A stretch of DNA of 49,975 nucleotides from an uncultured Anaerolineae bacterium (GCA_964481205.1 CAYZYE010000005.1:1-49975), one strand, 5' to 3'; numbered from the stretch's first letter, positions 426 to 18,011 are shown. The notes: a model not told the origin generated them from the sequence alone. Translations and numbers: made by a program.

Positions 426-1832
426 TTAGGGGCCGGCGACAATCTGTGTAAAATAGTTCGCTATGGCCTCAAAGTTGAGACCGCCGAACAGGATGGCGGA
501 CGCCAGGATGAGCAAGGCGGCAAGCGACTCCGCGGCGATTGGCGTGGACGGCTGTTCCGGCGTGCTATCCTGGCACATCGCGGCGATCCATCGCCCGCTC
601 GACAGCCAGGCCGCGCACAGCCCGACCATAGTCGCGCCGATGCGCCAGCGATTGCCGTCTGCGGCCGCGATCTGGAAAAAGCGCCACACCCCCAGCGCGC
701 CCGCCGTCGGCGGAGCGCCGGCCAGGCTGAGCAGGCACAAGATGGCGACTGCGGCGACCCAGGGATGCCGGCGGCGCAAAGCGGCCAGATCGCCGAACGA
801 CGCGCCCGGATCGAGCGCCGTGATCACCGTTCCGAGGCCGAGCAGCCCGGCGCTGCCGCCGAACAGTGTATAAAACACGAGACCCCAGCCATCGGCCTGA
901 CCACGTTGGAACGCTGCAACCAGGACAATGATCGACAGCCCCGGCGTGGTCAAGGCGATACCCCGCAAGACGTCGCCGGGCGTGCGCGCGCGCCAGGCGA
1001 CGAGGTGCCCTGTTCCAAAGAGCAGTGTACCCAGGATGGACAGCAAGGCGAGGTGCGGGGCGTACAGCACGCCGACCAAACGGCCCAGCGCCGCGATCGC
1101 CGCCCCGGAGAGGATTGTCGCCCGGAGCAGCCCCAGCGGCGCGCCCGACGCTTTATCGCCGGGGCGCGGGCACAGTATGCCCAGTGGAATGAGCACTCCC
1201 CCCAGGATGAGGCCCAGCCCCAACAGGGCCAGCGGGTTTGACTCGCCGCCCGGTTGCGAATTCAACCGCTCCGCCATCAAGTTGAGGAACCAGGCGCCGG
1301 TCGCGCCGTAGAGCAGCGCCGCGCCAAATAAAAAATGCCCCAACCCGACGCCGTGGACGACAAAATACCGCCAGGCGACGTTGGCGCCGCTCAAGGCGTC
1401 GAGCGCCAGATAGAGCATCGCCAGGCCGAGGAGCAGCGACAGCAAGTGTGTGGCTCGAGCGACGACCATTGCGCTGGTCACACCCAAGAGAATCAACGCC
1501 AGGTCGCTGCCGCGCCGAGGTCGCGCCGGGGTCGCTTCCCGCCCCAACTCGATCAAGATGGAAACCACACTGACGCTGCAAAAAAAGAGCGTCCACAGTG
1601 TGCCGGGGCCGTCGCCGATCAGCATCCCTTGCACCGAACCGCCCTGACCGCTAAACAGCACGATCAAGTCCAACGCCGGCGCGACAACGAGGCCGGTCAG
1701 GGCAAGCCAGGCCAATCGCTGCGCCCCGACGCCCCACAGGTCGAGCAACAAAACGCCAATTGCCGCGCCAACCAGGATCAGCATTGGGATTAAATTTGCC
1801 ATTTGGAGAGGCATTGTGGGCATGTTGAACAC
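426..1832 (-). CDS. nuoN: NuoN-like antiporter-type membrane subunit, highly divergent
   Basis: 468 aa, polytopic, LSLAGAPPTAG motif, last gene of the nuo order; catalytic Glu/Lys appear absent. Confidence 0.8.
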   Translation of the reverse strand: MFNMPTMPLQMANLIPMLILVGAAIGVLLLDLWGVGAQRLAWLALTGLVVAPALDLIVLFSGQGGSVQGMLIGDGPGTLWTLFFCSVSVVSILIELGREATPARPRRGSDLALILLGVTSAMVVARATHLLSLLLGLAMLYLALDALSGANVAWRYFVVHGVGLGHFLFGAALLYGATGAWFLNLMAERLNSQPGGESNPLALLGLGLILGGVLIPLGILCPRPGDKASGAPLGLLRATILSGAAIAALGRLVGVLYAPHLALLSILGTLLFGTGHLVAWRARTPGDVLRGIALTTPGLSIIVLVAAFQRGQADGWGLVFYTLFGGSAGLLGLGTVITALDPGASFGDLAALRRRHPWVAAVAILCLLSLAGAPPTAGALGVWRFFQIAAADGNRWRIGATMVGLCAAWLSSGRWIAAMCQDSTPEQPSTPIAAESLAALLILASAILFGGLNFEAIANYFTQIVAGP

Positions 1833-1844
1833 TCGCTTGGGTTT

Positions 1845-3290
1845 TTACCAGAAACTGTTTTGAATGCCGGCGTGAATCTCGGCCCCAAGCCGGCGGATCG
1901 ACGGGCCAATGGTGTCTGAAAACCACTGCGGGCGCAGACCGATGATCAGCAGGGCGACGAGGATGGGGAGCGCGAGCGCGGTTTGCGTCGTCGGCGGGGT
2001 GTCCTGGCGCGCGCGCGGCCAGGCGCGGGCCAGCGCCCACGCGCCGATCAGCAGCCCGGCGGCGATCACGCCGTACAAGCCCCAGTCTAGCGCCACATTG
2101 ATCGCTGGCGCGACGTCGGCCTGCCAATGCCAGCGCAGCATGCCGAGTACGAACAAGAGTTGGCCGGCGAATCCGGCCAGGCCGGGGATGCCGATCAGGG
2201 ATGCAAAAGCCGCCCAAGACGCCGCCCGCCCTGTTCCTTGCCGGGGGTCAGAATGGCATATCCACAGCGCGGCCAGCCCCAGCCCGCGCGCCACAAAGGC
2301 GATGACGGCGCCGTGGATGCTCAAGGCTTGCAGCATAAAAATGCCAATCAGCCCCAGCCCCATCTGGGCGACATGCCAGTAGGCCAGCGTTTCATCCAAA
2401 GAGTCGCTGGCGGCCGAGGCAAAGGCGCCATAGAGCAGCCCGGCCGCGCCCAGGACGATCATTGCCGGCGCAAAGCTGGCGGCGGCCAGTGGAAAAAGGA
2501 GCAGGCAAAAACGGATCAGCCCATAGCCGCCCAGGCTGGTCAGCAGGCTGTAGGCGAGTATTTTGGTCGCGGCCGGCGCGTCGCGCTGCGCGTCGGTCAA
2601 CCCGATGTGAAATGGGAACGCTGCGCCAGTGATCAACATTGCCGCCGTCAGTGTCCAAAACATCCAGGCTTGCGCGGGCCAGTCCGGCATTGCCTCGCCG
2701 GCGAAACCGGTTTGTTCTGCCAACAAACCGGCAATGACGACCGCGATCGCGATCGCCGCGCTGACGGCGGCGATTCCCAGGAGCGCGGTGTTGGGCCGAG
2801 ATTTCGTTGAACGTTGAGCATCGTTGTTGAACAAAAAGAACATGGACAACATGGCGATCAGCCAAAAGGCAAAGAACAAGACCAGGTTCAGCGCGGTCAG
2901 CGCGCCCAGCGCGCCCGTCTCGAACACCAGGATCGAAACTGCTTGTCCCTTGTCGAGCTGCGCCCAGGCGAGCAGCAAGGCAAGCGGCGTCAGCAGGGCG
3001 GTCATCATCACCAGGTGCAGGTTGATGCCGTCGATGCCGAGGTAATAGTCGATCCCCAGCGTGGGCGACCACGCCAGCGGCCCATCGACAAACTGCCGGG
3101 GCGCAGCGTCGTCATCGCTCCAGCCCATGTATAAAAAGAGCGCGATGAACAGGCAGGCGGCCGCGGACAAAAAGGTCAGCCAGCGCCAGACCTCGCGCCG
3201 CCTGCCTGGGATCATGGCCGCGACGACGGCGCTCAGAGCGGGCAAAAAAACGATCAAGGTCAAGAGCGGGAAGCCACCCAATTGGTTCAT
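1845..3290 (-). CDS. nuoM: NuoM-like antiporter-type subunit, divergent (start MNQLGGFPLL)
   Basis: LGIDYYLGIDGI, FPFHIGLTDAQRDAP, GGYGLIRF and IPGLAGFAG motifs; ATG at 3290 overlaps the nuoL stop (ATGA). Confidence 0.85.
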   Translation of the reverse strand: MNQLGGFPLLTLIVFLPALSAVVAAMIPGRRREVWRWLTFLSAAACLFIALFLYMGWSDDDAAPRQFVDGPLAWSPTLGIDYYLGIDGINLHLVMMTALLTPLALLLAWAQLDKGQAVSILVFETGALGALTALNLVLFFAFWLIAMLSMFFLFNNDAQRSTKSRPNTALLGIAAVSAAIAIAVVIAGLLAEQTGFAGEAMPDWPAQAWMFWTLTAAMLITGAAFPFHIGLTDAQRDAPAATKILAYSLLTSLGGYGLIRFCLLLFPLAAASFAPAMIVLGAAGLLYGAFASAASDSLDETLAYWHVAQMGLGLIGIFMLQALSIHGAVIAFVARGLGLAALWICHSDPRQGTGRAASWAAFASLIGIPGLAGFAGQLLFVLGMLRWHWQADVAPAINVALDWGLYGVIAAGLLIGAWALARAWPRARQDTPPTTQTALALPILVALLIIGLRPQWFSDTIGPSIRRLGAEIHAGIQNSFW

Positions 3291-4330
3291 TCCTGAAGCC
3301 TCGTTTCTGCGGTTTGGTTGGACCGTTTGCGATGCGCGCGACCGGCGAGGCGGCTTTCCAACCGGAGCAGATATTGCCCCCCGCGCAGCGCCGTTTTGGC
3401 GATTGCATCGCCGAGTCCATTGAACAAACCTGGCAACCGCCAGGCGCGCCGGGATCGCCGGGCAACAAAACATCCGATGTATATTGCCGTCCATAGCGCC
3501 CACAGCGCCCCGTACCAGGCAACCGGAGGCGGCGCGGGCCGAGTCTCGGTCAGCAAGGGATAGATGCGCGCGAGCAAGAGCATACTGCTGGACGGGACGA
3601 CCCAGAGCGCGATCAGCGCGCGCCGGGGGCCGGCCCGAAATGAGTATTGTGTCGCGCGGGCCAACACGCCGGCCAGCGCGCAAATGACAATAATTGTCTG
3701 CGCGGTGTGGAGGGGCAGCAGCCGTTCCGGGGCCAGGGTCGCAGAACCAAGATGGTCGATCGATGCCGAGGCAAATGTTTGATCGATCATTGCCGTCGCC
3801 AGCAGCAGACAAAGGTCTGCGCCCAGCGAGGCGATGGGCGACGATGCACGCCGTGAACTCGACGTCCACATGATCCACCCACTCAGCGACCAGCCCAGCA
3901 GCAAGACCCAAAAGTTGTCGGCAAACTCGAGCAGCAGCAAAATAGCCAGCGCGCCATTCAGACGGGCGAGGGTGCGGCGGCGGGAGCGCGCTGTGGCGCT
4001 GCGCGCGACATAGAGGTGGATGAACAGCCCAACGGCGACGGTGGTCGAGGCCGCGAGGATCGAGATGGCGTCTACTCTGAGCCGGAGGGCGATTTGAATA
4101 AAGGCGGCGCCCGACCACACTCGCAGCCAGGGCAGCGCCACAGATCGTCCGACCAGACCGGGTTCGATGATCTGGCCCCACAACAGCGGCATAATGATCA
4201 AGCCCGCGCCCACGACCGCGCCGCAAGCGACCCAGTTTTGCAACCGGCGTGTGAGCCGGTGGCCGATCAGCCCGTTGATCGACGCGCCGATCAGGGGCAG
4301 TAGGATGGGCAGCCACTCGATGTACTTCAT
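3287..4330 (-). CDS. nuoL: NuoL-like subunit, shortened to 347 aa
   Basis: N-terminus matches NuoL (LPLIGASINGLIG, LRVDAIS, VGLFIHLY, ADNFWVLLLGW); position between nuoK and nuoM; about half the usual length. Confidence 0.75.
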   Translation of the reverse strand: MKYIEWLPILLPLIGASINGLIGHRLTRRLQNWVACGAVVGAGLIIMPLLWGQIIEPGLVGRSVALPWLRVWSGAAFIQIALRLRVDAISILAASTTVAVGLFIHLYVARSATARSRRRTLARLNGALAILLLLEFADNFWVLLLGWSLSGWIMWTSSSRRASSPIASLGADLCLLLATAMIDQTFASASIDHLGSATLAPERLLPLHTAQTIIVICALAGVLARATQYSFRAGPRRALIALWVVPSSSMLLLARIYPLLTETRPAPPPVAWYGALWALWTAIYIGCFVARRSRRAWRLPGLFNGLGDAIAKTALRGGQYLLRLESRLAGRAHRKRSNQTAETRLQE

Positions 4331-4332
4331 TT

Positions 4333-4611
4333 TTAGCTGTTCTCACCCGGCCTGGAAACCGGGTACGTCAGGGCCAGGGCCACCCCAACCGCCAACTCGA
4401 TCACGGCGATGGTCAGAATGACCAGTGTGATCACCTGGCCTTCCCAATTTTGAAACCAGCTCGCCAGCGAGGCCAGGGCCAGGTTGGCGGCGTGCAAGAT
4501 CAACTCGACGCCCATCAGGATGATCAGCGGGTGCTTGCGCACGGCGACGATCATGACGCCGAGGACAAACAAAAGCATACTCGAAAATAGATAATGGTAC
4601 GGAGTGATCAT
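4333..4611 (-). CDS. nuoK: NADH-quinone oxidoreductase subunit K
   Basis: 92 aa, 3 TM segments, LFVLG..RKH..MGVEL..EGQV..IEL.VG; both conserved Glu present. Confidence 0.9.
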   Translation of the reverse strand: MITPYHYLFSSMLLFVLGVMIVAVRKHPLIILMGVELILHAANLALASLASWFQNWEGQVITLVILTIAVIELAVGVALALTYPVSRPGENS

Positions 4612-4624
4612 GTATGATCCTCAC

Positions 4625-5167
4625 TCAAGAATCTCGCGCCGATCTCGACAACCGGGCCACGATCACCAGCCCGATCAGCAAGAACAGCCCGATCAGTTCA
4701 AAAGGAACGAGGTTGTTAGCCAGCAATTCCTGGCCCAGCGCCGGGATGTATTCTCCCTGGACGGCCCACAGCGGGGGTGATTGGAGAACGGCGGCGCCAA
4801 TGCGCCCCCGGACGATCGCCCAACCGGCGACGGCCGCCAAGATCAAGGCGAGCGGCACAAAGACGAGCAGTCTGGCGAGATTTGGCCGCACCGGGGCTGT
4901 TGTTTTCGGGGACTCGGGGCGCGTCGGTTGAGCGGCGAGGTCGAAACGTTTTGCGCCCCAGATCAGGGCGCTCCCGCTCAAAAAGCAGAAAAAGAGTTGG
5001 AGCGCGGCCAGAAATGAGGCATCGAGGAGAAAATAGAGTCCGGCCAGAGCGGTGATCGAGAGCAAAAACGCACAGATGCCGGGTATGATTTTTTTCAAAA
5101 GCAGCACGCCGGCCGCGCCGGCGAGGGCCAGCGCAACCAGTGGGACGAACAGGATGGTCACGATCAT
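4625..5167 (-). CDS. nuoJ: NuoJ-like subunit, divergent (start MIVTILF)
   Basis: Hydrophobic 180 aa; LYFLLDASFLAALQ and LGQELLANNLVPFELIGLFLL match NuoJ; ATGA overlap with nuoI. Confidence 0.8.
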   Translation of the reverse strand: MIVTILFVPLVALALAGAAGVLLLKKIIPGICAFLLSITALAGLYFLLDASFLAALQLFFCFLSGSALIWGAKRFDLAAQPTRPESPKTTAPVRPNLARLLVFVPLALILAAVAGWAIVRGRIGAAVLQSPPLWAVQGEYIPALGQELLANNLVPFELIGLFLLIGLVIVARLSRSARDS

Positions 5168-5481
5168 GATCCGGTCTCCCTGGTTTGGAGCGCGTGTTCT
5201 GGGCAGACCAGGACGCAGATGGCGCAGTGCATACAGCGTTGGATGTCGATGCGGATCGCGGTCTGACCCTGAATAACGATGCAGTGAGTGGGGCATGCGT
5301 CCACGCAGCGCCGGCATGCCGTACATCGCGTTTGGCCGTCATCGTCCTCGCGCAGCGCCGGCGGGCCGCGAAAAGGCAGCGTTGATGGCGCGGCAGGTGG
5401 TTTTTGGATGCCGCGTCGCCAGACGAGGCGCATCGCTTGCCCAAGTTGGATGAGGTGGTTCAAATAGCTATCAATGGACAT
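5164..5481 (-). CDS. nuoI: NuoI-like 2x[4Fe-4S] subunit (start MSIDSYL, 105 aa)
   Basis: FRGPPAL...CTACRRCVDACP and CMHCAICVLVCP ferredoxin motifs. Confidence 0.85.
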   Translation of the reverse strand: MSIDSYLNHLIQLGQAMRLVWRRGIQKPPAAPSTLPFRGPPALREDDDGQTRCTACRRCVDACPTHCIVIQGQTAIRIDIQRCMHCAICVLVCPEHALQTRETGS

Positions 5482-5486
5482 GTTGT

Positions 5487-6350
5487 TCAACGTGTCGCGA
5501 TCAGCGCCGTGACGATCAGGTTCAACGCGGATAGCGGGATCGCGATTTTGAAAACGGTTTGGACATGTTTGTTCGAGACGGCAGGCGGCAGCGCGGATCG
5601 CGCCAGCGTCCACACCAAGGCGATCAGCCCTACCTGGAGCGTCGTGTACAAGACGGCCAGCCACGGGACTCGGTCGACGAACGGCCCGCCGCCTCCGCCC
5701 ATAAAGAGCGCGCTCGTCAACAGGGCGCGGTTCAAGGTCAATGCTTGGCCGCTCCAACCGGCCTGCGTCTGCGCAGTCCAGGCCGGAGGCCGGGCGCAGA
5801 TGAGCCACAAGAGAAACGCCGCCGGTTGTCGCCAGGCGAACCAGCCCAGGCCGTTCCATTTTCGCTGCGCCTCGAGCCAGGCCGTCAGTCGCAAACTGCC
5901 GGGTTTTACGGCCAAAAGCAAGCTCAAGACGATGAGTAGCATGGGGATCGCGTTGACAAGATGCGTTTCCAGGGTGGAATGGTGCGCGTTCCACCTTGCC
6001 TCGCCTTGTTTTTTGAGCGGGAATTCGGCGCGCGCGATCAGGATGGCCTCGCCGGCCCATTGCAGGGCCAGCGCGTAGAGCAGCGCCGCGCTGCTGTCGC
6101 CCGGCAGCCGCCAGGAGGACGATTGCGGCGCGGACAGGTTGGCCGGCGCAAGTGGAATGACCGCGCCGGCCAGTAACGCGACAACGATGACCGGCCAATC
6201 CCGGCGGCTCAATCGAGGCGCAACCCGGCCGGCGGGGCGCTGATGAAAGCGTCCGCCCAGCCATTGCTCCCAAAAATGATGTCCAACCAGCAAGAGGACA
6301 TAAAACAGCAACCAGACGGCCAATTGGGCGATCCAGGCGGGGTTGTTCAT
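5487..6350 (-). CDS. nuoH: NuoH-like membrane subunit, strongly divergent
   Basis: 287 aa polytopic protein between nuoCD and nuoI; W..WRQP.AF, LF.GGG.GP and W-K..IPLS..NL-type remnants. Confidence 0.7.
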   Translation of the reverse strand: MNNPAWIAQLAVWLLFYVLLLVGHHFWEQWLGGRFHQRPAGRVAPRLSRRDWPVIVVALLAGAVIPLAPANLSAPQSSSWRLPGDSSAALLYALALQWAGEAILIARAEFPLKKQGEARWNAHHSTLETHLVNAIPMLLIVLSLLLAVKPGSLRLTAWLEAQRKWNGLGWFAWRQPAAFLLWLICARPPAWTAQTQAGWSGQALTLNRALLTSALFMGGGGGPFVDRVPWLAVLYTTLQVGLIALVWTLARSALPPAVSNKHVQTVFKIAIPLSALNLIVTALIATR

Positions 6351-7849
6351 TGCGCGGCCCCGGCAATCGAAATGTCCAGACTGTCCAGGATGAGTGGGAG
6401 GCGCGCGGCGGGCGTTCCTGCGGCGATCAGGGGCAGCATGGATAGGTTGGCCAGGGACGGCGCGCGAATGTGAGCGTACTGTAATCGATCGGCGCCGTTG
6501 GCGCAGAGATAAATGCCCAATTCGCCGCGCGCGCTTTCAATGGCGGCATATATCGCGCCGGCCGGCAAGGTTTGGGGAAGGGCCGGCTGCCGGGGGAGGG
6601 CGAAATGGTTGACCTCTCCCTGTTTCAGTTGGGTCAGCGTTTGCCGGATGAGGCGCAAGCTGGCCTCGATCTCGGCGACGTGGACCAGGTAACGCGCCCA
6701 GGCGTCGCCTGACTGTGCGGTTATGACCGGGACATCCAGCTCGTCATAACCGGAATAGGGCAAAGCGCGACGCACGTCATAGGATACGCCCGTCGCGCGC
6801 AGGCACGGGCCGGTTGCGCCCAGCCCCAGGGCCGTGCCGGGATCGATCACGCCAATGTCCTTCCAGTGCGAGCGAAACTCGGAACTTGAGGTCAAGAGGC
6901 GGTCGATATCGACCAACAAGGTGTCCAGGGGGGGCAGCAGCGCGGCCGGCGACAGGCCGGCGTCGAGATCGCGGGCCAGCCCGCCGATGGCGATAATGTC
7001 CGGGGTGATGGGGTTGCCGCCCAGGCGCTGAAAAAAATCGAGGATGGTTTGGCGTCCCTGCCACAGGTAAGAGATGACGGCCAGGTTTGCCCCGTACAGG
7101 TTTTGCACGCAGCGCGCCAACCAATAAAGATGGGAGGCGATCCGTTGCAGCTCGGCATAGATGACCCGCAGCTGCCGCGCTCGTCTCGGCGGCGTAACGC
7201 CAAGCAGTTTTTCGATGCCTAGCGCGTAAACCAGGTCCGTTTGCATCGCCGAAAACCCGTCCATCCGCGCGGTGAGCAGGATGGCGCGGTGGTAGGGCCA
7301 TTGGGTCAGTTTGTTTTCCAGGCCGATGTGCCTGTCGCCGAATTCGACCCGGATGCCGGCGACGCGCGCCTGGCGCTGTTCAATGTCAATGTGCCACCCC
7401 TCAAGGCTGGTTGGGCAGCGCGAGCCGATCTCCCACCGCGTCCAGGCCTGGCCTCGTTCATCCTGGGTGGACGCTTTTTTGAGCAGCGGGCGCGGGTCGG
7501 GATGCCCGTTGAATTCGATGCCCCACAGGTCGCGGGCGCGGCGTTCGCTCCAATTTGCGGCCGGCCAGACCAGGGCCAGGCTGTCCGGCGCGGGCGAGGT
7601 GTTGACGCACAGCCGCAGGCGCCGGCGGTGGGACAGTGACCCAAGTTGGTAGTGTATTTGCTGCGGCGCGCGGGCGGCCGTGAGCAGCAGGTCGTAGCGG
7701 GTTTCCGGCTCGTCGCGCAAAAATTCGGCGACCTGCCCCAGGTAGGCCGACTCGACGTGCAGCGCCGGATTGGCGTTTTGCGCCGCCAGCGTGAACGAGG
7801 CGTCGGGAAAGCGTGTTTTGAGCAGATCGACCAGGCGGCGCTCGCTCAT
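6347..7849 (-). CDS. nuoCD: fused NuoC/NuoD-like protein (start MSERRL, 500 aa)
   Basis: NuoC motif WPAANWSERRARDLWGIEFNGHPD; NuoD motifs IEKLLGV, AELQRIASHL, GPCLRATGV.YDVR, ESARGELG, IRAPS..NL; ATGA overlap with nuoB. Confidence 0.9.
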   Translation of the reverse strand: MSERRLVDLLKTRFPDASFTLAAQNANPALHVESAYLGQVAEFLRDEPETRYDLLLTAARAPQQIHYQLGSLSHRRRLRLCVNTSPAPDSLALVWPAANWSERRARDLWGIEFNGHPDPRPLLKKASTQDERGQAWTRWEIGSRCPTSLEGWHIDIEQRQARVAGIRVEFGDRHIGLENKLTQWPYHRAILLTARMDGFSAMQTDLVYALGIEKLLGVTPPRRARQLRVIYAELQRIASHLYWLARCVQNLYGANLAVISYLWQGRQTILDFFQRLGGNPITPDIIAIGGLARDLDAGLSPAALLPPLDTLLVDIDRLLTSSSEFRSHWKDIGVIDPGTALGLGATGPCLRATGVSYDVRRALPYSGYDELDVPVITAQSGDAWARYLVHVAEIEASLRLIRQTLTQLKQGEVNHFALPRQPALPQTLPAGAIYAAIESARGELGIYLCANGADRLQYAHIRAPSLANLSMLPLIAAGTPAARLPLILDSLDISIAGAAQ

Positions 7850-8280
7850 AGCGCGCTCCGGTGCGTTTTTTGCCGTGACAGGTTCGACAGGGCGTGGTAC
7901 AGCGCGTTGGGGTGCGGCGGGCAGCCGGCGATCCGGGCGTCGACGGGGAGCAAATGTTCGACGGCAATGGTGTCGAATATGGCGCCCGAGATGGCGCATA
8001 CGCCGTAAGCGATGACCCACCTGGGTTGGGCCAACTGTTGGTACAGCGCGTCGAGGTGCGGGCAGATCGCCGGCGATATGCGCCCGGCGACGATGAGCAG
8101 GTTGGCCTGGGCGGGAACCAGGTCGTATGCGCCGCCGTCGACGGCGGGCCAGCCGGGGCCGAGGGTAGCCAGTCCGCAGCAGCCCAGATCGAGCAGGAGG
8201 GGACGGATCGCCGGTTGGGCGACGTTGATCTTGCGACGTTGCTGCATTTTGCGCCGGGGCTTGGAAGGCGAGGCGATCAT
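7846..8280 (-). CDS. nuoB: NuoB-like Fe-S (N2) subunit (start MIASPSK, 144 aa)
   Basis: LGCC, LIVAGRI, VIAYGVCAISG and GCPPHP; all four N2 Cys ligands present. Confidence 0.85.
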   Translation of the reverse strand: MIASPSKPRRKMQQRRKINVAQPAIRPLLLDLGCCGLATLGPGWPAVDGGAYDLVPAQANLLIVAGRISPAICPHLDALYQQLAQPRWVIAYGVCAISGAIFDTIAVEHLLPVDARIAGCPPHPNALYHALSNLSRQKTHRSAL

Positions 8281-8315
8281 TTTGGCTGGCTCCGATCGAG
8301 CTGGGGCAGAAAAGG

Positions 8316-8582
8316 TCATTCGGCGTTTTTGAAAATATAGAACACGCCCGCCGCGAGTAAAGTCACAAACAGGGCAGCGGCGGTGAGGGCGCGTTTTTGG
8401 GCGACCGCGGGCAGGCCGGCCCATGGCAAGAGCCACACCAGGCCCGCCAGGATCAACACGGCCATCAATGTCCAGGGCGGAAAAGGCGTTGCGTCGGTTT
8501 GCCGGTGTGCGTCCTGAAAAAAGCGCCACATTGCCGGCAGCGCGATGCAGGATAACAGCGTCAGGGTGAAAAATATGGTCAT
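8316..8582 (-). CDS. nuoA: NuoA-like subunit, divergent
   Basis: 88 aa, 3 TM segments, LLPWA and G.FYIFK end motifs; first gene of the operon. Confidence 0.65.
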   Translation of the reverse strand: MTIFFTLTLLSCIALPAMWRFFQDAHRQTDATPFPPWTLMAVLILAGLVWLLPWAGLPAVAQKRALTAAALFVTLLAAGVFYIFKNAE

Positions 8583-14573: not shown

Positions 14574-16439
14574 TTAGGCATACTCGCGTACCCAGGCGAT
14601 GTCCAGTTCGGCCAGTTTGGCCTCGGTGGGCTGACCGCTGTCTGGGTCCCAGCCCATCATGCCATAGTACAGTTTTCGCGCCTGGTCGAGTGTTTCCGGC
14701 ATGACCGGCTTTTCGTTCAGGGTTTTGGTTTTGTGGTAGGCAGCGACGCGCGGCGGGAGCACGTCATCGGCTTTGCTCAGACCCTCGCGCAGGTTAAAGA
14801 CGCGCGCCATGGTCACGCCGCGTTCTCCGGCCTTGATCAGTTCCCAGACGTTTGTTTTCCACCCGGTGATGGCGCGGATCAGCTGCACGATTTGATCGCG
14901 CGACCAGGGGACAAACATGCAGCAGCAGATGTGGTTGTTGATCCAGGCCCAATTGGTCGAGATGGTGTAGGCGCGCACTTTGTGCGCGTTGAGTTCGGTT
15001 TGCGGCACCGATTCGTAGAGGCCCAGGCTTTGCATATCTTCGCCCAGCGGGTTTTGCGCCAGGCCGCCATCCCAAAAGTTGTGCATATGATCGGCGCCGG
15101 TGGGCGAAACGGCATATCCCAGGGCCTGGCCGTGGCGCGTGCGACATTCGTGCATGGGGAACGGCTGCTTTTTGACGTCGAGGACAAAGGCGCGGGCGGC
15201 GTCGCCGATCTTGTCGGCGGCGCGAGTGGGGCCTTGGGCCAGCAGGTCGCCCAGCCCTCGACGTTCGCAGATTTGCCGCGTCAGTTCGACCATTGCCGCT
15301 CCGTTGCCAAAGTTCAGGGCCAGGCCGCCGCTATCTTGGGTGTTGAGCAGCCCGTTCTCAAAACATTCCATGGCAAAAGAGACGGTCATCCCGGTCGAAA
15401 TCGTGTCCAGGCCATAGGCGTTACAAAGTTCGTTGGCCTTGGCGATCGCGCGCAGGTCATCGACGCCGCAGTTGGAGCCAAACGCGCCGACGGTTTCGTA
15501 TTCGGGGCCGCCGTATTGCGGATCGACTTGATAGTCTTTGTCGTCGACCGCGACCACGCGCTTGCAGCGGATGGGGCAGGCGAAACAGCCGCCCCGGTCG
15601 ATCAAAATGGTGTCGCGCATGGCCTCGCCGCCGATCTTGGCCGCTTTCTGAAACTGGCCATCTTGAAAGTTGCGGGTGGGCAAGGCGCCGATCTCGCTGA
15701 GGCCGAGCAGTCCGCCGCAAGTGCCCAGGTCGTGCATACCCCAGGCTTTTTCTTTCCAGTTTTGCGCCATCCATTTAGCCAGCGCTTTGAGCGCGCCGGC
15801 GTCGGCCAGGGGGACGGGGGTGTTGCCTTTGGCGGCGACGCATTTGAGGTTTTTCGACCCCATCACTGCGCCCATGCCGGTGCGGCCGGCGGCGTGTTTG
15901 AGGTCATTGATCACGCAGGCATAGCGCACCAGTTTTTCGCCGCCCGGCCCAATCATGGCCAGACGGGCGCGTTTTTCTCCCAACTCGGCGCGCACGGCTT
16001 TTTGGCATTCCAGCGTGGTCATTCCCCACAGGTGGCCGGCCGGGCGGATTTCGACCTGGCCGTGGTTGATCCACAGGTAAACCGGCGTGGGCGACTTGCC
16101 ATAGATGACGATCGCGTCAAATCCGGCGTGTTTGAGTTCGGCGCCGAAAAAGCCGCCCACGTCGGCCTCGCCATAGCCACCGCTGAGCGGCGACTTGGCC
16201 CCGACGGCGCTTCGCCCGGCCCCGGCGACGGCGACGCCGGTGAGGACGCCGGTCGCAAAAATCAGGACATTGTCGGGGCCAAGGGGGTCGGCGCCGGCGG
16301 GTACGTGTTTGAGTGTATAGTAGCCGATAAAGCCGTTTCCGCCGAGGTAGCGCCGGTAAAAGCTCTCCGGCGGTTCTTCGATGTTGAACGTGCCTCGAGT
16401 TAAATCGACATGCAAAATTTTACCAGTGTACCCATTCAT
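14574..16439 (-). CDS. aor: aldehyde:ferredoxin oxidoreductase (tungstopterin family)
   Basis: KSPLSGG, AGRTGMGAVMGSKNLK, CFACPIRC, GPEYET, GLDTISTG; AGGAGG RBS. Confidence 0.93.
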   Translation of the reverse strand: MNGYTGKILHVDLTRGTFNIEEPPESFYRRYLGGNGFIGYYTLKHVPAGADPLGPDNVLIFATGVLTGVAVAGAGRSAVGAKSPLSGGYGEADVGGFFGAELKHAGFDAIVIYGKSPTPVYLWINHGQVEIRPAGHLWGMTTLECQKAVRAELGEKRARLAMIGPGGEKLVRYACVINDLKHAAGRTGMGAVMGSKNLKCVAAKGNTPVPLADAGALKALAKWMAQNWKEKAWGMHDLGTCGGLLGLSEIGALPTRNFQDGQFQKAAKIGGEAMRDTILIDRGGCFACPIRCKRVVAVDDKDYQVDPQYGGPEYETVGAFGSNCGVDDLRAIAKANELCNAYGLDTISTGMTVSFAMECFENGLLNTQDSGGLALNFGNGAAMVELTRQICERRGLGDLLAQGPTRAADKIGDAARAFVLDVKKQPFPMHECRTRHGQALGYAVSPTGADHMHNFWDGGLAQNPLGEDMQSLGLYESVPQTELNAHKVRAYTISTNWAWINNHICCCMFVPWSRDQIVQLIRAITGWKTNVWELIKAGERGVTMARVFNLREGLSKADDVLPPRVAAYHKTKTLNEKPVMPETLDQARKLYYGMMGWDPDSGQPTEAKLAELDIAWVREYA

Positions 16440-16481
16440 TTTTTTCCTCCTGTTGGCTTACGCTTGGTCGGGTGGCGACGA

Positions 16482-18011
16482 TCATTGGATGAATGACCAG
16501 GGCAGCGGCGTGTTTTCATCTCGAACCGGGTTGGCGGCGAGGTCGATCTCGCATTTTTCCAGGGCCTGACGCCACGCTTTGGACGACGTGCCCTGTAGCG
16601 CCGTCAGGACGCGCCCGATGCGGCGGTCGCCGCGCGCCAACAGCCCCTGAATGACCGCCCACCTGGGGCTTTCGCCTTTGAGCGCAATGTGTTGTCGTTT
16701 GAGTTGCGCGTCGAGTCGCTTGAGCCGCGCGTCGAGCACGGCGGTGGGCGTCATTGTGACGCGCTGAAATGGAGTGTGCGCCTTGGGTACAAATGGCGTC
16801 ACGTTGGCCGTGATTTGGCCGGGAAAACGGGCCGCGACCTGGGCGCACAGTTGGGCGATGGCGGCAATGTCATGGTCGGTCTCGGTGGGCAGGCCGATCA
16901 TAAAATACAGTTTGAGTCGTCGAAACCGGTGGTGCGCGGCGCGTTCGGCGGCGTGGAGCAGGTTGGTTTCGGTGACGCCTTTGCGGATCGAGCGCCGCAA
17001 GCGTTCGCTGCCGGCTTCGGGGGCCAGGGTCAATGTTTGCGCGCCGCTTTCGGCCAGCGCTTGCAGCAGCGATTCTGACAGGGGCGCGACTCGGAGCGAC
17101 GACACGGAGAGCCGCGCGCCCAGCGCCCGCAGTTTGGAGACCAGCTCGTCGATCGGCGCATAGTCGGACACGGCGGCGCCGACCAGCCCGATTTTGTTGC
17201 GCTGCGTCAGCCCATATTTGGCCTGTTCCAGGATCGACTCGACGCTGCGCTCGCGTTTGGGGCGCGTGGTGAACCCGGCGAGACAGAATTGGCACCGGCG
17301 GCTGCACCCGCGCGAAATTTCGATCAGGTGCATATCGCCAAATTCGGCGTCGGGGGTGTGAATGACCGTCGAGGTCGGGTGATCGTCCAGGCGGCGCACC
17401 CATTGGCGCGTGACCGGTGGTGGTTCTGCGCCGGGGTGGAGCTGCGGCGCGTATACGCCGGGGATTTGCCCCAGCGCCGACCACAACAACTCGCGCGGTT
17501 GGGACGCATTTTCGATCAGCGTCTCGACGAGTGGTTCGAGTACCGGTTCGATCTCGCCGATGACAAAGGCGTCGATCAGGTCGGCCAACGGCAAGGGGTT
17601 GGCCGAAACGGCCGGCCCGCCGGCGATGACGAGCGGCCAGTTTTGGTCGCGTTCGCCGGCGCGCAGGGGGATTTTGGCCTGACGCAGCGTTTGCACCACG
17701 TGCGCATAATCCATCTCGAACGAGATCGAAAAGGCGATCACCCCAAAATTGCCGATCGCGCTTTGGCTTTCGATGGATACGATCGGGGCGCCGGGTTTGC
17801 GGTGCGGCTGCCAAAAGGCGCGTTCGCAAACGATGTTCGGGTAAGCGTTGAACAGGCGGTAGACGGTTTGAAAGCCCAGGCTGGACATGCCGACGCGGTA
17901 CGTGTTGGGATAGACCAGGGCGACCGGCAGTTTGCCGCCCCAGTCCTTGATCACGACGCCATGCTCGCGCGCCAGGATGCGGCGCGCGTGTTCAATGTAT
18001 GACCATTTCAT
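16482..18011 (-). CDS. radical SAM protein with N-terminal B12-binding-like domain
   Basis: EISRGCSRRCQFC (CxxxCxxC); YPNTY.VGMSSLG; LAPEAGSERLR; YFMIGLPTE. Confidence 0.9.
   Translation of the reverse strand: MKWSYIEHARRILAREHGVVIKDWGGKLPVALVYPNTYRVGMSSLGFQTVYRLFNAYPNIVCERAFWQPHRKPGAPIVSIESQSAIGNFGVIAFSISFEMDYAHVVQTLRQAKIPLRAGERDQNWPLVIAGGPAVSANPLPLADLIDAFVIGEIEPVLEPLVETLIENASQPRELLWSALGQIPGVYAPQLHPGAEPPPVTRQWVRRLDDHPTSTVIHTPDAEFGDMHLIEISRGCSRRCQFCLAGFTTRPKRERSVESILEQAKYGLTQRNKIGLVGAAVSDYAPIDELVSKLRALGARLSVSSLRVAPLSESLLQALAESGAQTLTLAPEAGSERLRRSIRKGVTETNLLHAAERAAHHRFRRLKLYFMIGLPTETDHDIAAIAQLCAQVAARFPGQITANVTPFVPKAHTPFQRVTMTPTAVLDARLKRLDAQLKRQHIALKGESPRWAVIQGLLARGDRRIGRVLTALQGTSSKAWRQALEKCEIDLAANPVRDENTPLPWSFIQ

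Follow-up and report, generated by a model that had tools for sequence, protein, structure and literature searches.

A complex I-type operon from Anaerolineae with antiporter-like subunits that probably do not pump

How redox chemistry at the quinone site of complex I drives pumps up to 200 Å away is debated, and laboratory mutants of single residues of its charged axis cripple the enzyme. What, then, is a complex I-type operon that lacks these residues in all of its antiporter-like subunits? The question is raised by a 49,975-nucleotide stretch of DNA from an uncultured Anaerolineae bacterium (GCA_964481205.1, CAYZYE010000005.1:1-49975; hereafter, the window), in which ten contiguous complex I-type genes lie on the minus strand at positions 426-8582 in the order nuoA-B-CD-H-I-J-K-L-M-N. 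The original prediction, made by eye, was that neutral residues had replaced the buried Glu and Lys of NuoL, NuoM, and NuoN directionally rather than randomly, while NuoK had kept its two Glu. Our analysis indicates that the operon encodes a complex I-derived iron-sulfur membrane complex that, judged from its sequence, probably does not pump through the antiporter-like subunits and is probably a new variant within the complex I relatives.

Charged-axis residues of NuoL, NuoM, and NuoN

We compared the subunits with the E. coli K-12 nuo operon, which supplies the residue numbering used here, by phmmer searches against all PDB chains and by MAFFT alignment. Window NuoM matched NuoM of E. coli (3rko_M) and Paracoccus denitrificans with E-values of 2.9e-32 and 4.9e-34, respectively. 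It carries the replacements E144L, K234T, K265S, and E407Q, exactly as had been read from its motifs FWL, ITGAAFPFH, LLTSLGGYG, and GFAGQ. Three His residues are also changed (H248Q, H322Q, and H348R), and H241 is kept. In the numbering of the window protein itself, the sites are L144, T221 (K234), H228 (H241), S252 (K265), Q309 (H322), R335 (H348), and Q377 (E407). The predicted losses in NuoN were likewise recovered as E133A, K217P, K247S (Ala by phmmer), and K395V, with H124 kept. In NuoL, the two positions named in the prediction read E144S and K229R, and D134 and D178 are kept. The K229R replacement retains a positive charge, a point that the prediction did not stress; arginine is not a proton carrier.

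Much of the remaining charged axis of NuoL is physically missing. The window protein has 347 residues compared with 613 in E. coli and lacks the regions of H334, H338, K342, K399, and D400. By alignment, it ends after about TM9 (transmembrane helix 9), without TM11-16, the second half-channel, and the transverse helix HL. Window NuoL has no Pfam match and a weak ND5 match (E = 0.0095), and its AlphaFold2 model, built from a 3-sequence alignment, reached a predicted local distance difference test score (pLDDT) of 39.9 and was not used. Its identity comes instead from a profile search, in which a profile of 10 family L sequences matched NuoL chains (5.8e-40) along the full length, with the C-terminal helix included. 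The L proteins of relatives are mostly 551-619 residues long and align to NuoL through the C-terminus; relative to them, the alignment gives the window L a deletion that is either internal or C-terminal. In two relatives, the L genes have been shortened independently and encode 334 and 427 residues. By these alignments, the complete conserved Lys/Glu/His pattern of the central hydrophilic axis is gone from NuoL, NuoM, and NuoN, apart from H241 in NuoM, H124 in NuoN, and D178 and R229 in NuoL.

These losses extend across a family. A search of 5.8 billion proteins with the window M-like protein yielded 35 relatives at 37-53% identity, followed by a sharp drop in score to canonical NuoM at ≤31%; the named relatives all come from Anaerolineae metagenome-assembled genomes. 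An exhaustive profile search of 1.84 billion representatives gave about 18 full-length 50%-identity clusters at 581-717 bits, with the next full-length match at 293. By sequence score, then, the M-like proteins are a small, discrete family, whose closest protein pairs are 85% and 79% identical. Besides the genome of the window, the operon is carried by the assemblies GCA_016929205.1, GCA_040960625.1, GCA_016929775.1, GCA_964449465.1, GCA_054026155.1, and GCA_016931365.1.

We aligned at least 60 M sequences with MAFFT (36 family members, including the window, and 24 canonical NuoM). E144, K234, K265, and E407 are absent from 36/36 family members, whereas 24/24 canonical proteins have E/D, K, K, and E at these positions. 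The N and L relatives were taken from operons recovered around the family loci. All 12 N-like proteins (the window and 11 relatives, aligned with MAFFT against E. coli) lack E133, K217, K247, and K395, and all 10 L-like proteins carry E144S/A and K229R; K342, K399, and D400 are kept in none. Scanning metagenome contigs with a family sub-alignment gave 13 loci, mostly on contigs of 3-4 kb, which added four N and two L sequences. A scan of genome contigs with the M-family alignment was swamped by canonical NuoM (one generic pattern), with L006 as the only family locus, and a word-index search with NuoL returned only two relatives.

The replacements themselves recur. The family consensus is Leu at E144 (21/36), Thr at K234 (28/36), Asn at K265 (28/36; the window has Ser), Gln at H322 (32/36), Arg at H348 (20/36), and Gln at E407 (22/36). 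The residues T at K234, N at K265, Q at H322, and Q at E407 all exceed the mean column identity of the M family (41%).

We also scanned the alignments for titratable columns, defined as those with D/E/K/R/H in at least 60-75% of family members. The conserved survivors are D84, E124, D135 (Asn in the window), H241, R273, and the Arg at the H348 position (20/36) in M; D70, H124, and R256 in N; and D82, D134, D178, R229, and R268 in L. No substitute conserved Lys, Glu, or His stands at the TM5/7/8/12 positions in the family columns of M, N, or L. The outcome that would have spoken against the original prediction, namely alternative charged residues at these positions, was therefore looked for and did not appear.

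Despite these changes, the fold of M is predicted to be retained. The AlphaFold2 model of window M, built from a 36-sequence alignment, had a pLDDT of 89.6 and a predicted template-modeling score (pTM) of 0.91 and superposed on NuoM/ND4/NdhD, the top Foldseek matches, at TM scores of 0.82-0.87. The discontinuous TM7 and TM12 are visible in the DSSP assignment of the model, where the helices are broken at 221-231 and 366-372. Residues that shape the fold of M (P239, Y269, G270, P280, G324, G397, P399, G400, F404, G479, and P482) are kept in 86-100% of members. Scores for PF00361, the Pfam family of the Mrp/NuoLMN antiporter superfamily with its 14-TM fold, lie above the cut-off for both M (56.9 bits) and N (36.3 bits), and L belongs to the superfamily by profile.

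In sequences this divergent, the losses could be artefacts of alignment. Low Pfam scores (36 bits for N, 32 bits for H, none for L) would fit such an explanation. However, phmmer, the MAFFT alignment, the family profile against PDB chains, and the structural model with Foldseek all agree; flanking motifs such as FW[E/L], PxH, GGYG, and GFxG[E/Q] align unambiguously; and the titratable-column scans gave no conserved residue at the central-axis positions. We therefore consider an artefact highly improbable.

Is the loss of charge directional, as was proposed? Of 66 near-invariant positions in canonical M, 33 are changed in the family. Titratable positions are retained in 4/13 cases and the others in 29/53, a difference with P = 0.21 by Fisher's test and P = 0.048 by the Mann-Whitney test. 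Because this enrichment test is weak, we do not claim a charge-specific loss relative to overall divergence. By a rough estimate, the chance loss of all six M axis positions would be about 0.5^6, and that of all 14 in L, M, and N about 6e-5. Directional loss is instead supported, at the sequence level, by the loss of all axis positions in three paralogous subunits together with conserved substitutes, and further by the parallel loss of the quinone site and coupling loops (see below) across a clade with intact genes. What the comparison supports is a clade-wide loss, with its conserved substitutes and retained Gly and Pro; the loss of charge is only modestly enriched over the loss of other invariant residues.

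Quinone site, coupling elements, and iron-sulfur ligands

In NuoCD, we tested the quinone ligands corresponding to His38 (GPQHPxxHG loop) and Tyr87 (DRxDY) of Thermus thermophilus Nqo4. The His loop, GPxHPxxHG, reads GSRCPTSLE in the window, and the tyrosine motif, DRxEY/DRxDY, reads ARMDGF. Both ligands are absent from 47/47 family clusters, whereas the His loop was kept in all canonical NuoCD matches inspected and the Tyr in all but one (P0173, which has Phe). A segment of about 20 residues that is present in NuoD of E. coli and T. thermophilus is deleted in the window. Most family members have a GxRYPTS loop in place of the His loop; its Tyr is Cys in the window and Phe, Leu, Gln, Trp, or Met in others. 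Window NuoCD has no NiFe Cys motifs, which are absent from all NuoD too.

The elements that connect the quinone site to the membrane arm are depleted as well. The alignment of NuoH shows no TM5-6 loop, and E157 and the PRxRYDQ motif are missing as well. NuoA lacks the FESG/ECG motif of the TM1-2 loop and D79/E81, and NuoJ lacks the VYxGA motif, both in agreement with the prediction. NuoK of the window does keep E36 and E72, as was noted, but the pair is not invariant: E36 is present in 5/7 and E72 in 6/7 relatives, and one of the two is Gln or Gly in three of the seven. The NuoK Glu pair is all that is left of the E-channel. The original prediction was therefore right about the residue losses but incomplete, in that the losses extend to the quinone site, the loop of NuoH, the distal half of NuoL, and the N-module. 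As far as the sequences tell, they take in all of the coupling machinery and not the pumps alone.

In contrast, the ligands of the iron-sulfur clusters are intact. The four Cys ligands of N2 in NuoB (CC...C...CPP) are present in the window, with C63, C64, C129, and C158 in 7/7 sequences, and NuoI keeps 8/8 Cys ligands of N6a and N6b in the window and in 6/6 relatives.

The remaining charges raise the possibility that the complex still translocates ions, at lower stoichiometry. Ions could move through the NuoK Glu pair and NuoH or along water wires of Thr, Asn, and Gln, with a quinone, for example menaquinone, held in place by substitutes like the Tyr of GxRYPTS. The retention of E36 and E72 in the window and most relatives fits this proposal, as do the polar, hydrogen-bonding nature of the replacement residues, the Tyr in the loop of most family members, and purifying selection on the membrane arm. 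Against it stand the variability of that Tyr and of the NuoK pair, the loss from NuoH of the TM5-6 loop and of the acidic residues that in complex I connect NuoK with the quinone site, and the lack of any titratable chain in L, M, or N. We think that such a pump is unlikely. In P. denitrificans complex I, mutants in charged residues of Nqo13/ND4 impede catalysis, yet the enzyme stays strictly coupled (PMC9802314). Given this behavior, slow yet coupled, a complex without the axis residues would not be expected to run the canonical cycle. The joint loss of the quinone site and the pumps is what would be expected if coupling as a whole had been abandoned.

Operon integrity, origin, and likely function

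Is the operon simply decaying? All ten reading frames are open and free of frameshifts, and their G+C content at third codon positions (GC3, 0.69-0.81) is the same as in the rest of the window. Start and stop codons overlap by 4 nt at the A/B, B/CD, CD/H, I/J, and L/M junctions, and gaps of 2-13 nt separate the genes at the remaining ones. The gene set, gene order, and overlapping junctions indicate one translationally coupled operon. Within the family, mean pairwise identity is 54% for B, 50% for CD, 47% for K, 43% for M, 39% for I, 38% for H and J, 36% for N, 35% for L, and 30% for A, a ranking similar to that in working complex I. The membrane subunits are thus conserved roughly as in a working complex, which argues that selection acts on them. 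Reading frames and lengths are kept although synonymous sites are saturated (the closest compared DNA pairs are ≤58% identical).

These observations bear on the proposal that the operon is the functionless remnant of a duplicated complex I, in slow decay. Several features are compatible with decay: 24/53 non-titratable near-invariant positions in M are changed as well, NuoL has been shortened differently by lineage (347, 334, and 427 residues), some relatives have partial operons, and the family is rare, at about 18 clusters among 1.84 billion representatives. However, at 37-53% identity the family retains its length, the Gly and Pro of the fold, all 12 iron-sulfur cysteines, and specific replacements, and neutral decay over such a distance would wreck reading frames; the window itself has ten intact genes with coupled junctions and native GC3. 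We consider a relic quite unlikely. Pseudogenization was rejected on the basis of intact frames, conserved cysteines, and clade-wide conservation.

By its gene set, the operon is a NuoB/NuoCD/NuoI iron-sulfur arm on a membrane arm of NuoA/H/J/K/L/M/N-like subunits. Pfam, PDB, and family-profile comparisons identify A, B, C, D, H, I, J, K, L, M, and N together in canonical order. Genes for NuoE, NuoF, and NuoG were found neither between nuoCD and nuoH nor elsewhere in the 50-kb window, although other regions of the genome could encode them, and the operons of relatives did not contain them either.

The NuoD-like domain places the operon far closer to complex I than to hydrogenase-type complexes. 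Its best PDB match is T. thermophilus Nqo4 (7e-53, 183 bits), ahead of the large subunits of MBS (6u8y_L; 1.3e-36, 130 bits), MBH (6cfw_L; 1.5e-26, 96 bits), and FHL (7z0s_E; 7e-23, 84 bits). The nearest canonical NuoCD (31-35% identity, motifs intact) belongs to an ordinary nuo operon of 14 genes, in which C and D are fused and EFG are present, which indicates that the state seen here is derived, as an offshoot of bona fide complex I. With the respiratory enzymes (E. coli NuoA-N and T. thermophilus Nqo1-16), the operon shares the ten membrane and Q-module subunits, their gene order, the fusion of NuoC and NuoD seen in E. coli, the best sequence or fold matches of NuoD, L, M, and N, and the N2 and N6a/N6b cysteines. 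It differs from them in lacking NuoEFG, the quinone ligands of NuoD, the TM5-6 loop of NuoH, and the conserved Lys and Glu of the proton paths in L, M, and N; NuoL of this genome also lacks HL.

A full-text search of the literature found no description of the family; it surfaced two other groups instead. The first comprises 11-subunit complex I-like enzymes without an NADH module in strict anaerobes, such as that of Desulfitobacterium hafniense (PMC11238625). The operon has the A, B, C, D, H, I, J, K, L, M, N complement of these enzymes, of cyanobacterial NDH-1, and of archaeal Fpo, likewise without E, F, and G, which by analogy suggests a donor other than NADH, such as ferredoxin. In the D. 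hafniense-type enzyme, NDH-1, and Fpo, the pump residues are retained along with a site for quinone or phenazine, and energy is conserved. The window operon has neither, and its nearest canonical relative is a 14-gene rather than an 11-gene operon. The cyanobacterial NdhD and NdhH chains were matched as canonical in our PDB comparisons.

The second group, Ehr, consists of membrane complexes of the complex I/hydrogenase family whose large subunit lacks known substrate ligands; they are related to the group 4 [NiFe]-hydrogenases, contain Mrp-type subunits, and are hence presumed to translocate charge (PMC6349859). One report places such complexes in the Chloroflexi supergroup (bioRxiv 10.1101/2021.08.23.457424). 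The window operon resembles Ehr in its family and in a large subunit stripped of substrate ligands. Unlike Ehr, it has the nuoA-N order with NuoA and NuoJ, its large subunit scores 183 bits with NuoD but 96 with MbhL and 84 with HycE, and its antiporter-like subunits are the disabled parts. An assignment to Ehr was therefore set aside on gene order and NuoD affinity, the latter scored against MbhL and HycE. MBH, MBS, and FHL share with the operon a NuoB/D/I/H-like module and antiporter-like subunits, but their similarity is much weaker, their operon architecture is different, and window NuoCD has no NiFe Cys motifs.

Other partly neutralized NuoM-like proteins occur in Thermodesulfobacteriota, Acidobacteriota, and other groups and have lost one to six of the same positions. 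They are 27-32% identical to window M, fall outside the discrete family (581 to 293 bits), and have other gene contexts. Among roughly 125 next-best NuoM-like representatives (P0248-P0374), a ranking biased by the query profile, about 45 are missing at least one of the six axis residues, which suggests that partial losses of graded extent occur in several phyla. An orphan Proton_antipo_M pair lies on an unrelated 6-Mb contig (L093:10001-13100); the first protein has A, R, H, N, Y, Y, and Q at E144/K234/H241/K265/H322/H348/E407, so neutralized antiporter-like proteins exist outside nuo operons too. Another locus (L107:5547-13179) is a membrane arm only, nuoA-H-J-K-L-M-N without B, C, D, and I, and its NuoM-like protein has Q, P, H, P, Q, Q, and E at the same seven positions.

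We lean toward a reading of the operon, held with slightly more confidence than doubt, as a derived 11-subunit-type complex I relative, confined to a clade of Anaerolineae (Chloroflexota), that would have kept the iron-sulfur chain, would not pump, and would have a function other than proton pumping. Ferredoxin is the default donor for complexes without the N-module, and the window also has a gene for an aldehyde:ferredoxin oxidoreductase. Since the operon has no NADH module, a low-potential cytoplasmic donor such as ferredoxin could feed N6a/N6b and then N2. Electrons would leave N2 for an acceptor in the remodeled pocket that is not bound as a canonical quinone is. The L/M/N module would serve as a proton-tight membrane anchor or scaffold rather than as pumps; the neutral polar Thr, Asn, and Gln would keep the broken-helix fold stable and might also stop protons from leaking through an uncoupled antiporter module.

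Several points weigh against this reading. The enrichment of charge loss over the loss of other invariant residues is statistically weak, and all family members come from metagenome assemblies. The operons of some relatives are partial and modular, which could reflect relaxed selection or two halves that work separately. NuoK E36/E72 are mostly kept, as are D134, D178, and R229 of NuoL, H241 of NuoM, and H124 of NuoN, which could leave a residual single ion path. Finally, the identities of the donor and the acceptor are purely what we infer.

Such a complex would give structural and computational work on the hydrophilic axis a negative control from nature, separating residues needed for the fold from those needed for function, and would be a test case for other uses of the complex I scaffold. 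It is also a warning for metabolic reconstruction, in that such genes are auto-annotated as 'NADH-quinone oxidoreductase subunit M/D' in Anaerolineae metagenome-assembled genomes. An operon of this kind counted as an energy-conserving complex I would almost certainly be miscounted.

Gene inventory and genomic neighborhoods

The genes of the operon and other features of the window are listed in Table 1. Pfam scores are low for the membrane subunits M, N, and H, absent for L and A, and good for NuoD. The 112-bit match of window NuoA to the NuoA family profile is circular, as the profile contains the window's own sequence. The nuoM frame remains open for 352 codons upstream of the real start, across the entire nuoL gene, and so produces a spurious 833-codon open reading frame. 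This is an artefact of high G+C content that could mislead gene callers; many M proteins of relatives are annotated with 540-600 residues.

Table 1. Coordinates of the nuo-like genes and other features of the window
Feature	Length	Position	Strand	Evidence
NuoN-like antiporter-like subunit	468 aa	426-1832	-	PF00361, 36.3 bits; phmmer PDB matches: NuoN of M. smegmatis, E. coli, T. thermophilus
NuoM-like antiporter-like subunit	481 aa	1845-3290	-	PF00361, 56.9 bits; PDB phmmer; AlphaFold2 and Foldseek
Shortened NuoL-like subunit, roughly TM1-9 and a short tail	347 aa	3287-4330	-	Family profile vs NuoL chains, 5.8e-40
NuoK-like subunit	92 aa	4333-4611	-	Pfam PF00420, 62.5 bits; alignments
NuoJ-like subunit	180 aa	4625-5167	-	Pfam PF00499, 43.3 bits; alignment
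Minimal NuoI-like 2x[4Fe-4S] subunit	105 aa	5164-5481	-	Fer4 Pfam matches; 8 Cys ligands
NuoH-like subunit	287 aa	5487-6350	-	Pfam PF00146, 31.8 bits, C-terminal part only; alignment
Fused NuoC-NuoD-like subunit	500 aa	6347-7849	-	Pfam PF00346, 179.6 bits, and PF00329, 68.3 bits
NuoB-like subunit	157 aa	7846-8319	-	Pfam PF01058, 58.6 bits; alignments
NuoA-like subunit	88 aa	8316-8582	-	No Pfam match; operon position and alignment to NuoA of four relatives and E. coli
Spurious open reading frame	833 codons	1845-4346		Extension of the nuoM frame
Aldehyde:ferredoxin oxidoreductase	621 aa	14574-16439		AFOR_N/AFOR_C
Aldehyde:ferredoxin oxidoreductase with adjoining radical SAM protein (509 aa)		14574-18011		
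Saccharolytic region		20608-46709		

In three relatives, a divergent larA/Ldh_2 block flanks the operon on one side and a convergent GT2-larC-larB-larE block on the other, and two more have part of this arrangement. These loci of the Lar (nickel-pincer cofactor) type are L004:1-20759, L087:2415-17001, L088:1310-15146, L002:15285-20560, and L090:4913-9038. The divergent upstream side contains larA and the gene for an Ldh_2-family dehydrogenase, as well as two Amidohydro_2 genes and an HD gene.

This synteny could mean that the complex has been recruited to a non-bioenergetic job, as a membrane scaffold or for electron delivery to another enzyme system, possibly the Lar 2-hydroxyacid system. A conserved, remodeled pocket beside N2 suggests a new ligand, and a Band_7 scaffold protein follows L-M-N-only versions of the operon. 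However, the synteny may be plain inheritance within one subclade: no lar genes lie beside nuoA in the window, and two family loci (L005 and L086) have other neighbors. We also know of no mechanistic link between LarA-type enzymes and iron-sulfur chains, and we give recruitment an outside chance. Combined with the non-pumping reading favored above, it leads to a bolder proposal that we put forward only tentatively and regard as rather doubtful. The operon would encode a natural, stable complex I that is both pump-dead and quinone-blind, its arms kept but repurposed as a non-electrogenic machine for electron delivery or scaffolding. Its acceptor would be new to the enzyme family, perhaps linked to the Lar 2-hydroxyacid genes, and it would mark the endpoint of a wider trend of neutralized antiporter-like subunits in several phyla.

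The partial operons take several forms. One (L002:8337-14528) contains L-M-N only, followed by a gene for a 552-residue Band_7 protein. Others contain L-M only or M-N only, and one genome has A-B-CD-H-J-K with the 334-residue L but no M or N. The modular and partial loci besides the first are L089:1887-5476, L006:9998-12915, and L091:3828-8747. On a 249-kb ENA contig (L090:1-21512), larA, Ldh_2, and the NAD synthase gene are each split, and the nuo-like operon breaks off inside nuoH; this fragmentation likely reflects a frameshift-rich long-read assembly rather than biology.

Upstream of nuoA, the window encodes a PD-(D/E)XK nuclease and a cytidylate-kinase-like protein; the downstream side of the operon runs off the window. 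Farther along, an aldehyde:ferredoxin oxidoreductase gene adjoins one for a radical SAM protein, a pair that points to a host with ferredoxin-based anaerobic metabolism. The rest of the window includes a saccharolytic region with genes for two sulfatases, an MFS transporter, L-rhamnose isomerase, a class II aldolase, and an FGGY kinase, along with a DeoR regulator, two URO-D-like proteins, and a WYL-domain regulator.

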